Source of the DNA: a virus | Lineage: Duplodnaviria; Heunggongvirae; Uroviricota; Caudoviricetes | Reading direction: 5' to 3' (one strand) | Length of the DNA: 5,250 nt | Virus record (IMG/VR): IMGVR_UViG_2609459846_000012 | Part shown: one piece after another, positions 990-4,386 of the stretch | Layout: each line of letters starts with the position of its first letter | Position numbering within the stretch: position 1 is the stretch's first letter | Made by a program: the position numbers and the translations under genes | The notes under the pieces: generated by a model | What the model saw: the letters and a program-made list of their open reading frames with translations, nothing else | Database searches by the model: none | Told to the model about the DNA's origin: nothing

Positions 990-1043
990 AGTGTTCAACA
1001 CTTGACGTGTTTAACACCAGAGCTTAAATTGGTGTTCAACACC
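990..1043. promoter_or_regulatory. divergent promoter/operator region with three palindromic operator-like sites
   Basis: AGTGTTCAACACT (990-1002), GTGTTTAACAC (1007-1017), GGTGTTCAACACC (1031-1043). Rightward sigma70-like promoter: -35 TTGACG (1002-1007), 17-bp spacer, -10 TAAATT (1025-1030). Leftward promoter candidate on the minus strand: -35 TTGAAC (within palindrome 1), 17-bp spacer, -10 CATACT (complement of 970-975). Confidence 0.5.
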
Positions 1044-2033: not shown

Positions 2034-2333
2034 ATGAAACTTAAATATTCTGGCTTAACTGCCAGTGGCAACACTCACCCTAAATTTACGCGCGGCGATA
2101 TTTACCGCGACCAGTACGGCGGCACGGTAATGATTAAGGACGTGGAAGAACGGCGCGTAACCTACCGCCGTGAAGGTTACGAATATGATTGCGTGATGCC
2201 TGTTTATCAGTTCCGGCGTGATTTTTCTCTGGTACAGACCGCGCCGCATAACGTGTCCACCAGCAACGCCAGGGCACGGGCAAACATCCAGAAGCTGAAA
2301 ACCATGATTAACGGATTCAGGGGTAAAAAATGA
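2034..2333 (+). CDS. hypothetical protein, 99 aa, immediately upstream of and coupled to the replication gene
   Basis: ORF-track ORF; SD GGAGA upstream; stop overlaps the alpha-like start (ATGA). Occupies the position that epsilon/orf151 hold relative to alpha in P4 as I recall it, but no sequence support for homology. Confidence 0.55.
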   Translation: MKLKYSGLTASGNTHPKFTRGDIYRDQYGGTVMIKDVEERRVTYRREGYEYDCVMPVYQFRRDFSLVQTAPHNVSTSNARARANIQKLKTMINGFRGKK

Positions 2334-4144
2334 AACTGGCACCGAACGTAAAACAGCAGTCACGCGGCATAAAACACAAAGAAACAGAAGTCATTATTTT
2401 TGCGGGTAGTGATGCCTGGTCACACGCAAAACAATGGCAGGAACATGACGCGCGTATGGCCGGAGATAATGAGCCTCCTGTGTGGCTTGGGGAGCAGCAG
2501 TTATCCGAACTGGATAAGCTGCAAATTGTGCCGGAAGGCAGAAAATCCGTGCGCATATTCAGGGCCGGATATCTTGCGCCAGTAATGATAAAGGCGATTG
2601 GTCAGAAGCTGGCGGCGGCAGGCGTACAGGATGCAAATTTTTATCCTGAGGGTATGCACGGCCAGGAGGTGCAGAACTGGCGCGAATATCTGGCCCGTGA
2701 GCGCCAGAATCTTTCTGATGGTCTGGTGATTCAGCTTCCTGTTAAGAAAAAAACAGAAGACAGCGCCGCACCACTGGCGCTTAACCAGATGGGAGCAAGC
2801 CAGCGCGGCGAAGTTCTCCTGGCACATTATGGCGGTGAACTGGCGATTCATGCCGACTCTGACACTGTTCACCATTACAACGGCGTTGTATGGGAGCCGA
2901 TTCAGGATAAAGAGTTACAGCGTGCTATGGCGCAGATTTTCATTGATGCGGAGATCAGCTATTCGCAGAACGCCATTAAATCGGCGGTCGATACCATGAA
3001 GTTAAGTTTGCCTGTAATGGGGAATACAGCCCGTAACCTGATTGGATTCAGTAACGGGGTATTTGATACCAGAACAGGTAATTTTCGGGAGCATAACAAA
3101 AACGACTGGTTGTTAATTGCCAGTGAATTACCTTTCAGCCCACCAGCAGAGGGGGAAACGCTGGCAACACATGCGCCGAATTTCTGGAAGTGGTTACGCT
3201 GCTCGGTGGCAGAGAATGACCGCAAGACGGATCGCGTGCTGGCTGCATTATTCATGGTGCTGGCGAACCGGTACGACTGGCAGTTATTCATTGAGGTAAC
3301 AGGTCCAGGGGGAAGTGGTAAAAGCGTGATGGCGGAGATTTGCACCATGCTGGCGGGTAAGGCCAACACAGTATCGGCAAGCATGAAGGCGCTGGAAGAT
3401 GCAAGGGAACGCGCGTTAGTGGTTGGCTTTTCGCTGATTATCATGCCGGATATGACCCGCTACGCTGGTGATGGCGCAGGAATTAAGGCTATTACAGGCG
3501 GTGACAAGGTGGCAATCGACCCGAAGCATAAAGCCCCCTACTCAACACGCATTCAGGCGGTCGTGCTGGCGGTGAACAATAACGCCATGTCATTCAGTGA
3601 CCGCAGCGGGGGGATCTCACGTCGTCGGGTGATATTCAATTTTTCGGAGGTTGTACCGGAGAACGAGCGCGACCCCATGCTGGCAGAAAAAATAGAAGGA
3701 GAGCTGGCGGTTGTGATTCGCCATCTGCTTACTCGTTTTTCTGACCAGGACGAAGCTAAACGCCTGCTGTATGAGCAGCAGAAATCAGAAGAAGCTCTGG
3801 TGATAAAACGCGAGGGCGATTCGCTGGTGGACTTCTGTGGCTATCTCATGTCGTCGGTAATGTGTGATGGTCTGTTAGTGGGTAATGCCGAAATTATTCC
3901 GTTCAGTCCGCGCAGGTATCTTTATCACGCCTATCTGGCATATATGAGGGCACACGGATTCGGTAAACCTGTAACACTGACGCGCTTCGGTAAAGATATG
4001 CCGGGGGCAATGGCGGAATATGGCAGGGAGTATATAAAACGGAAAACGAAGCACGGTTTGCGTTCAAATGTGACACTGACAGAGGATTCAGAAGACTGGA
4101 TGCCATCATGTGCATCGGTCACAAATGACGACAGCAAAAATTAA
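2330..4144 (+). CDS. P4-alpha-like replication initiator: D5_N-like region plus SF3 (P-loop) helicase, 604 aa
   Basis: Walker A VTGPGGSGKS (nt 3302-3325); Walker B-like hydrophobic run ending in D (LIIMPD); motif C-like VVLAVNNN; upstream GFSNGVFDTRTGNFREH resembles the D5_N / P4-family primase C-terminal region. Cognate iterons lie immediately downstream. The N-terminal ~200 aa are unassigned. Confidence 0.85.
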   Translation: MKLAPNVKQQSRGIKHKETEVIIFAGSDAWSHAKQWQEHDARMAGDNEPPVWLGEQQLSELDKLQIVPEGRKSVRIFRAGYLAPVMIKAIGQKLAAAGVQDANFYPEGMHGQEVQNWREYLARERQNLSDGLVIQLPVKKKTEDSAAPLALNQMGASQRGEVLLAHYGGELAIHADSDTVHHYNGVVWEPIQDKELQRAMAQIFIDAEISYSQNAIKSAVDTMKLSLPVMGNTARNLIGFSNGVFDTRTGNFREHNKNDWLLIASELPFSPPAEGETLATHAPNFWKWLRCSVAENDRKTDRVLAALFMVLANRYDWQLFIEVTGPGGSGKSVMAEICTMLAGKANTVSASMKALEDARERALVVGFSLIIMPDMTRYAGDGAGIKAITGGDKVAIDPKHKAPYSTRIQAVVLAVNNNAMSFSDRSGGISRRRVIFNFSEVVPENERDPMLAEKIEGELAVVIRHLLTRFSDQDEAKRLLYEQQKSEEALVIKREGDSLVDFCGYLMSSVMCDGLLVGNAEIIPFSPRRYLYHAYLAYMRAHGFGKPVTLTRFGKDMPGAMAEYGREYIKRKTKHGLRSNVTLTEDSEDWMPSCASVTNDDSKN

Positions 4145-4158
4145 ACTTATGGAATAAC

Positions 4159-4386
4159 TGTTCACCACTGTTCACCCTGTTATAAATATCTTTTATATCA
4201 GTACATTATAGGGTGAACAGTTATTTGTGAACTGTTCACCAAACTATTCACTGTTCACCTTTTTGATTATTTATTGAGCTTTAAGGGTGAACAGTGGTGA
4301 ACAGTTGGTGAATAGTTTTTGTGAAACTGTTCACCCCTTAACATTATGAATAAAAAGGGAAAATATCAAAAGGTGAACAGGTGAAG
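4159..4386. repeat. origin of replication: iteron array of TGTTCACC octamers in both orientations, interspersed with AT-rich tracts
   Basis: Forward TGTTCACC at 4159, 4169, 4233, 4252, 4328; reverse GGTGAACA at 4212, 4286, 4296, 4372; degenerate copies at 4177, 4245, 4307, 4380. Adjacent copies are spaced 10 bp apart (4159/4169; 4286/4296). AT-rich stretches at 4177-4210, 4260-4284, 4336-4370, 4389-4418. The octamer is identical to the type I iteron bound by P4 alpha in ori and crr, as I recall it. Confidence 0.8.

Follow-up and report, generated by a model that had tools for sequence, protein, structure and literature searches.

The DNA analysed here, a stretch of 5,250 nucleotides that we refer to as the window, is 100% identical in sequence to an E. 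coli chromosomal island that lies between allE and allC. In the left part of the island the gene order is integrase, AlpA-type regulator, truncated ORF and a leftward gene of the YlcI/YnfO family. The rightward operon comprises an Icd-like (cell-division-inhibitor-like) gene, small ORFs, DUF4222 and a D5/P4-type helicase-primase family protein, and is followed by iterons, SSB and ProQ/FinO. The island also carries a head and packaging set, consisting of capsid, protease, portal, connector, HNH, TerS and TerL, and lacks tail and lysis genes. Capsid-forming PICIs (cf-PICIs) have been defined as islands of ~15 kb with int, alpA and pri-rep and their own capsid, protease, portal, connector, HNH, TerS and TerL genes, without tail or lysis genes (10.1101/2022.09.08.507074). 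The RefSeq annotation of the identical allE-allC locus contains this gene set in full and, judged by gene content, the window belongs to a cf-PICI of E. coli. Of 5426 complete E. coli genomes, 1630 contain sequence similar to positions 500-1400 of the window. The features discussed below are collected in Table 1.

Table 1. Features of the 5,250-nt window and their coordinates.
Feature	Position	Strand	Description
Terminator-like hairpins	503-486 and 463-443	minus	follow orf62 and close the leftward RHH-orf62 operon
orf62	530-718	minus	small basic ORF, co-directional with the RHH gene; phrog_21027
RHH gene, proposed repressor	761-940	minus	59 aa, YlcI/YnfO family; predicted DNA-reading strand residues 11-16, QTVAAR
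P_L (candidate)	970-998	minus	TTGAAC (reverse complement of 993-998) / 17 nt / CATACT (reverse complement of 970-975); putative promoter of the RHH gene
O1	990-1002		AGTGTTCAACACT; extends to a 15-bp palindrome, 989-1003; upstream of the rightward -35, overlaps the candidate leftward -35
P_R	1002-1030	plus	sigma-70-type, TTGACG (1002-1007) / 17 nt / TAAATT (1025-1030); early/replication operon
O2	1007-1017		GTGTTTAACAC; its first base is the last one of the rightward -35; occupies the promoter spacer
O3	1031-1043		GGTGTTCAACACC; directly 3' of the rightward -10, over the expected transcription start
Antisense RNA and promoter (putative)	1060-1155	minus	RNA from ~1140 to ~1060 (~80 nt); extended -10 TGGTATAAT, reverse complement of 1147-1155
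Icd-like gene	1140-1346	plus	68 aa, first rightward gene; Shine-Dalgarno GAGG, 1130-1133
Iterons	4159-4379		ten exact TGTTCACC and one variant, in inverted groups around an A/T-rich centre

The leftward operon consists of the YlcI/YnfO-family gene, whose product is a predicted ribbon-helix-helix (RHH) protein, and of orf62, which is probably its second gene. Converging on this operon is the remnant, at 222-759 and annotated as incomplete, of a BRO-N domain gene that relatives carry downstream of alpA. The ORFs at 1336-1596 and 1569-1802 correspond to the two halves of one 154-aa PHROG family (phrog_2512), and at their junction lies a G9 run (1558-1566) whose length ranges from G7 to G10 among relatives; the run could be a slippage/frameshift site, or mere length variation.

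Upstream of the RHH gene lie three palindromic sites, O1, O2 and O3, with centre-to-centre spacings of 16 and 25 bp. All three had been reported at these coordinates in a preliminary description, and we recovered each of them. The window contains exactly three copies of the motif GTGTTYAACAC (991-1001, 1007-1017 and 1032-1042) against an expectation of 0.01, and none of 200 shuffled sequences held three or more copies. Their placement is also as first described: one site upstream of, one across and one downstream of the rightward -35/-10 elements, with the hexamer TTGAAC of the candidate leftward -35 falling inside O1. We rejected a reading of the palindromes as RNA hairpins, because a 5+1+5 palindrome is unable to form a stable stem-loop. 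Across the 24.9-kb island there is one extra match with at most one mismatch, where 0.84 would be expected by chance. This is GTGTTAAGCAC, with one mismatch, at 11482-11492 of the island sequence (L001), where it overlaps the alpA start codon, GTG, a short way to the left of the window. We rejected it as an operator as well, since one such match is no more than chance would give and EcCICFT073, whose operator class differs, has this sequence too; it is probably no operator.

The rightward promoter, P_R, is the only sigma-70-like match of the region, and the promoter-scan hit alone is at chance level. Support for P_R comes from conservation, in that TTGAC(G/A) (TTGAAG in locus L003) and an A/T-rich hexamer at ~17 nt are found in all operator classes. 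The frame that relatives share runs from the start codon through 64-65 nt to TTGAC(G/A), with a motif in the spacer, an A/T-rich -10 at ~17 nt and the motif repeated directly after it, and the positions of the sites relative to this promoter are kept in nearly all classes. The candidate leftward promoter, P_L, matches at 4+4 of 12 positions and is under the promoter-scan threshold; its CAGTAT(G/A) element is kept in most classes.

We compared 27 distinct sequences from the 47 loci whose sites belong to the GTGTT(C/T)AACAC class (class A). In these, O1 is invariant and O2 and O3 vary at the central dyad base only, and 5 of the 7 positions of the spacer between O2 and the -10 are variable. This is the pattern expected for symmetric reading of the sites by a dimer. 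Beyond class A, every relative holds a class-specific motif at the O2 position, and the O3 position is kept in most classes. O1 is an additional site specific to the class whose proteins carry the strand QT[VIL]AAR, and most other classes have instead a site at the leftward -10, O_L, located 45 bp from O2. Loci L129, L130 and L003 have both O_L and O1, and the type represented by the window appears to have lost O_L and to use O1 in its place.

Strong evidence on the identity of the binder comes from a comparison of ~100 loci that encode relatives of the 59-aa protein. These were gathered from one-genome-per-species contigs, viral contigs and look-ups of the exact protein, with EcCICFT073 added, and originate from Escherichia, Edwardsiella, Pectobacterium, Xenorhabdus, Klebsiella, Salmonella and virome contigs. 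Their sites fall into eight motif classes, all of the form GTG-N5(6)-CAC, and the core of the motif follows residues 11-16 of the predicted DNA-reading strand, with no discordant locus among the ~100. Thus, the strand QT[VIL]AAR, that of the window, occurs with GTGTT(C/T)AACAC; [KR]KLEAR with GTGGCTGACAC; KKIDVR with GTGTCTGACAC; KRFDVR and KRIDAR with GTGTCCGACAC; QSVTAR with GTGTAAGACAC; Q[SA]LK[SA]R, seen as QSLKSR and as QALKAR (EcCICFT073), with GTGGGCCACAC; QALRAR with GTGTAGACCAC; and AQKKIR(F) with GTGTACCCCCAC. The motif changes with residues 12 and 14, and residues 13 and 15 can differ while the motif is unchanged. KRFDVR and KRIDAR, for example, have the same operator core, and in the variable part of the strand they agree at positions 12 and 14 only. 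In each class to which de novo repeat finding was applied, the top-ranked repeat was the class motif, with O2 and O3 22-26 bp apart and O_L and O2 45 bp apart. The module is also present, with a different specificity, in the prototype Gram-negative PICI, EcCICFT073 (L081, NC_004431.1 1380473-1381052): its protein has the strand QALKAR and its sites are two copies of GTGGGCCACAC and one of GTGGGGGACAG.

Strand and operators can change while helices of the protein stay the same or nearly so. In locus L074, helix B is as in the protein of the window, also at the DNA level, and strand and operators are different; in L003 and L065 the helices are nearly identical, and again strands and operators differ. 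Together, the RHH gene and its sites may constitute an exchangeable, immunity-like cassette, of which the PICI-type satellites of Enterobacterales have at least eight specificities.

The 59-aa protein matches the NCBIfam family NF041551 (YlcI/YnfO; YlcI_YnfO_N) with 59.7 bits against a cut-off of 30, and bears the same name in RefSeq. AlphaFold2, given an alignment of 39 sequences, returned a model with a pLDDT of 84 in which an extended N-terminal segment is followed by two helices, as in the strand-helix-helix fold of ~45 residues that characterizes RHH proteins. The G-x-S/T/N turn between the helices of such proteins, at which helix B points its N-terminus to the phosphate backbone, is present as G32-E33-S34, which is invariant in the 39 homologues, as is R16. 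Alternate strand residues set specificity in RHH proteins, and the covariation of the motif with residues 12 and 14 is what this would predict. An alignment to Arc by hhalign places RVPHEV on RWPREV and T12, A14 and R16 on Arc Q9, N11 and R13. In the Arc-operator complex, Q9, N11 and R13 are base-contacting residues. Outside this shared motif no sequence family relationship to Arc is detectable (hhalign P 0.007). No Pfam RHH family matched the protein at E<=10, where the matches were faint ones to CB_ParB_C, DUF7557 and PSK_trans_fac, and a search of PDB chains with the protein and its profile gave chance matches only. We regard the missing match to a curated RHH family as a weak negative, because RHH families are frequently undetectable by sequence. 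The predicted fold is RHH-like. A tblastn search of 50,697 phage records found no homologue, and the subfamily thus appears to be specific to satellites and islands.

The namesake of the family, YlcI of E. coli K-12 (L082 5252-5446, in the prophage DLP12), is a distant RHH-like protein (…NIRFPNQMIEQI…GSGNFSAWV…). Its gene is divergent from nohD and lies ~200 bp from the cos sequence of DLP12; GTG-N5-CAC repeats are not obvious upstream of it.

That the divergent RHH protein binds the palindromes is a conclusion we reach by inference only, since the motif covaries with its strand residues and other linked genes do not track the motif. Identical AlpA proteins are found with operator classes A and B, identical copies of orf62 with classes A, B and F, and Icd-like proteins at 95-98% identity and primases at 99% identity likewise with classes A, B and F. 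The preliminary description had named the RHH protein as the candidate binder, and the covariation and the predicted fold both speak for that choice. One might still assign the sites to AlpA, to the Icd-like protein, to orf62 or to a host regulator. AlpA is, after all, the sole regulator of these islands that has been shown experimentally (PMC6092414), and the Icd-like protein carries the labels of PHROG 6196/1743, 'transcriptional repressor'. The distribution just described makes any such binder very improbable: the same AlpA and orf62, and nearly the same Icd-like protein, stand beside different operators, islands of class A and of class B are 98% identical in the left flank of the RHH gene, and a host factor could not explain eight motifs in one host range.

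The origin offers another potential binder. The octamer TGTTCACC of the iterons is identical to the annotated type 1 repeat of the P4 ori. The 604-aa protein encoded at 2330-4144 is 49% identical to residues 313-776 of P4 alpha, including the helicase and the C-terminal part; it is without the N-terminal primase part of alpha, and its first ~136 residues match phrog_2850, a PHROG without known function. On account of the shared octamer and of the identity to alpha, we assign the iterons to this protein. The preliminary description pointed to a hexamer, TGTTCA, common to the palindromes and the iteron, and raised the possibility that the replication protein binds the palindromes or the repressor the origin. 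The hexamer is indeed shared by TGTTCACC with O1 and O3; in O2 it reads TGTTTA. The proposed cross-binding, whether of the C-terminal origin-binding domain of the P4-alpha-like protein to the palindromes or of the RHH protein to the iterons, draws on this hexamer in two sites and in all ten exact iterons, and as a conserved feature it is contradicted by the comparative data. Were it to hold, operator sequence should be linked to iteron and Rep allele, yet the two assort independently. TGTTCACC iterons occur in only ~9 of the 47 class A loci, the remainder having iterons of the types AACCCGCA, AAAGTG(G/A)G, GGTAGACA, ATGAACAC, ATATCCCG and others, and they also occur beside two other operator classes, with QSVTAR/GTGTAAGACAC in L074 and AQKKIR/GTGTACCCCCAC in L014. 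Operators of the sequence GTGTTCAACAC are found with at least six unrelated iteron families, and the 99% identical primases sit beside three operator classes. We consider cross-binding exceedingly improbable, and at the level of sequence comparison the shared hexamer is a coincidence of one particular combination of operator and iteron. Among relatives of the island there are at least six other iteron families, and the replication protein changes to match.

Downstream of O3, the Icd-like gene appears to be subject to a further layer of control. Its product matches NCBIfam NF033153 with 70.3 bits. The RefSeq CDS (939-1346) overlaps the start codon of the RHH gene and crosses the promoter and all three operators; the start at 939 is probably too long, and a start at 1140 is a far better fit to the conserved layout. 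By the same token, the 374-codon open frame at 222-1346 is probably no gene over most of its length. Between O3 and the start codon, opposite the leader and ribosome-binding site, lies a predicted antisense RNA with two hairpins, the first of which holds the anti-Shine-Dalgarno sequence; the second is GC-rich and ends in a U-rich tail near 1060. The consensus fold has -31.4 kcal/mol on the antisense (minus) strand versus -5.8 on the sense (plus) strand. In 26 diverse sequences it comprises 23 pairs, 12 with compensatory changes, and many of its G-U pairs would turn into C-A mismatches if read on the plus strand. Paired cells make up 94.6% of the total, versus at most 51% in slid-partner controls. 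These features point to a conserved, structured cis-antisense RNA directed against the Icd-like ribosome-binding site, which would start near 1140 and pair with the Shine-Dalgarno sequence. An Rfam match to SymR (RF01809) covers 1139-1067 with 32.8 bits and does not reach the gathering score of 61. Apart from this sub-threshold match, Rfam returned chance miRNA matches on the iterons, and no match to C4, IsrK or an RNA of the P4-CI type. SymR/symE and P1 c4-icd are likewise arrangements in which a short cis-antisense RNA with two hairpins lies over the ribosome-binding site of a first gene whose product may be toxic. The antisense RNA here bears a weak, sub-threshold similarity to SymR and would be SymR-like in its working; in contrast to those systems, its target is the Icd-like gene or, in some relatives, another gene.

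We propose that the divergent 59-aa RHH protein binds the three palindromes as a dimer and that they serve as its operators. It would thereby silence the early operon of the satellite, and we give this reading a probability of about 0.8. One dimer would occupy each site. Dimers on O2 and O3 would exclude RNA polymerase, because O2 lies in the spacer of P_R and O3 directly after its -10. With P_R blocked, the early operon would be off from the Icd-like gene, through the small ORFs, to the gene of the P4-alpha-like helicase beside the origin. O1, lying over the candidate leftward -35, would confer negative autoregulation on the RHH gene. As for recognition, the outer GTG/CAC common to all members would be matched by the invariant Arg16, and the inner five bases would be read by strand residues 12 and 14. 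The preliminary description had recognized the layout of a repressor-controlled promoter, and the comparative data agree, the layout being kept in ~100 related loci. Held against a switch of the lambda type, layout and covariation fit, with a candidate leftward promoter that matches at 4+4 of 12 positions; a Cro-like second regulator acting on the same operators was searched for and not found, the first rightward gene being Icd-like and not covarying with the operators. Two properties of the sites count against the operator reading. The spacings between centres differ from the one-turn spacing typical of cooperative RHH tetramers, and the asymmetric sites of some classes, GTGGCTGACAC and GTGTACCCCCAC, fit a symmetric dimer less neatly.

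Granting that the RHH protein binds, its role could be narrower or differently timed than we propose. It might autoregulate only its own two-gene operon, for instance as the antitoxin-like partner of orf62, and leave the rightward operon uncontrolled. Such a role is distinctly unlikely, given that in nearly every class two of the three sites coincide with the rightward promoter, one with its spacer and one with its start, and that orf62 is itself variable, being missing from many loci that retain the palindromic sites; in addition, searches of Pfam, PHROG and NCBIfam matched orf62 to no toxin family. The protein might, alternatively, be a late or transient down-regulator in the induced cycle, in the manner of Cro or Arc, rather than a repressor that maintains the resting state. 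Arc plays such a role in P22, and over-expression of AlpA by itself induces these islands (PMC6092414; 10.1101/2025.02.11.637232), and the RHH protein may accordingly not be the main brake; AlpA over-expression being sufficient (PMC6092414), P_R is perhaps not the main checkpoint. Yet the RHH gene is divergent from its target operon and would have a promoter of its own, like Mnt and Stl/Rpr, and the near-consensus -35, the two flanking operators and the antisense RNA fit tight silencing in the resting state. We therefore deem a transient role unlikely and prefer silencing of the early operon by the RHH dimer.

A more ambitious version of this proposal is that the YlcI-type RHH gene and its GTG-N5-CAC operators are the missing master repressor of Gram-negative PICIs, the counterpart of Stl/Rpr, with at least eight interchangeable specificities set by a two-residue code. 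The repressor would form a double lock with the antisense RNA on the toxic Icd-like gene and the replication operon, and helper induction would proceed through AlpA by lifting repression, with an anti-repressor such as the variable gene downstream of alpA. We offer this version tentatively and give it somewhat less than an even chance. An anti-repressor in the left flank that covaries with operator class was searched for and not found, that flank being 98% identical between classes A and B.

In the founding paper on Gram-negative PICIs, AlpA is described as an activator and the global repressor as unclear (PMC6092414). Published work on EcCICFT073 deals with AlpA only, and in the literature searched neither the RHH gene nor the sites are described in subsequent papers that deal with cf-PICIs or with helper-embedded PICIs. 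Queries that combined RHH with PICI, or Icd-like with satellite, and queries for YlcI/YnfO likewise found no description of the YlcI/YnfO-RHH module in that literature, outside which most subscription journals lie, and an earlier description is possible. An RHH repressor-operator switch would be of a known kind, at a location to which no repressor had previously been assigned. The finding matters because Gram-negative satellites had been taken to have no known repressor: it provides a candidate, with mapped operators, for Gram-negative PICIs, whose published model has the activator AlpA alone. The eight natural pairs of protein and operator amount to a ready specificity code for an RHH family, a series that would be useful for questions of satellite immunity and compatibility and as a source of orthogonal repressor-operator parts. 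The analysis also corrects the start, likely mis-annotated, of the Icd-like gene.

The nearest parallels are found among phages and plasmids. Mnt and Arc, of the immI region of P22, are likewise small RHH proteins, and share with the 59-aa protein the strand-helix junction R-x-P-x-E-V (RVPHEV versus RWPREV in Arc). They have palindromic operators over a promoter, whose bases are read by alternate strand residues, as we propose here, and Mnt, like the RHH gene of the island, is transcribed divergently from the operon it silences. In contrast, Arc and Mnt act as tetramers on a single 21-bp operator, whereas the island has three separate sites of ~11 bp, 16 and 25 bp apart. CopG of pMV158 and omega of pSM19035 are RHH repressors of plasmid copy number and partition, and here the proposed target is the replication operon of a satellite; omega recognizes heptads in variable orientation with a 7-bp spacing, unlike sites framed by GTG...CAC. 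The immunity regions of the lambdoid phages (lambda, 434 and 21) combine divergent promoters, three operators and autoregulation, much as is proposed here, and their repressor gene and operators too form a mobile cassette among near-identical elements. Lambdoid repressors, however, are helix-turn-helix proteins rather than RHH proteins, and no Cro-like regulator was identified here. The breakpoint of the cassette differs as well, in that here it can fall inside the RHH gene, so that helix B stays while the operators move together with strand and helix A. In satellite P4, immunity is exerted by an RNA (CI), and in the island it would be exerted by the RHH protein. Stl/Rpr of the Gram-positive PICIs (SaPIs) occupy the same position on the map, divergent from the operon for excision and replication, and the RHH protein would be expected, like them, to keep the island silent pending the arrival of a helper phage. 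Stl proteins, which helper proteins remove, are large repressors of the helix-turn-helix type, and the RHH protein that would hold their place here is small.
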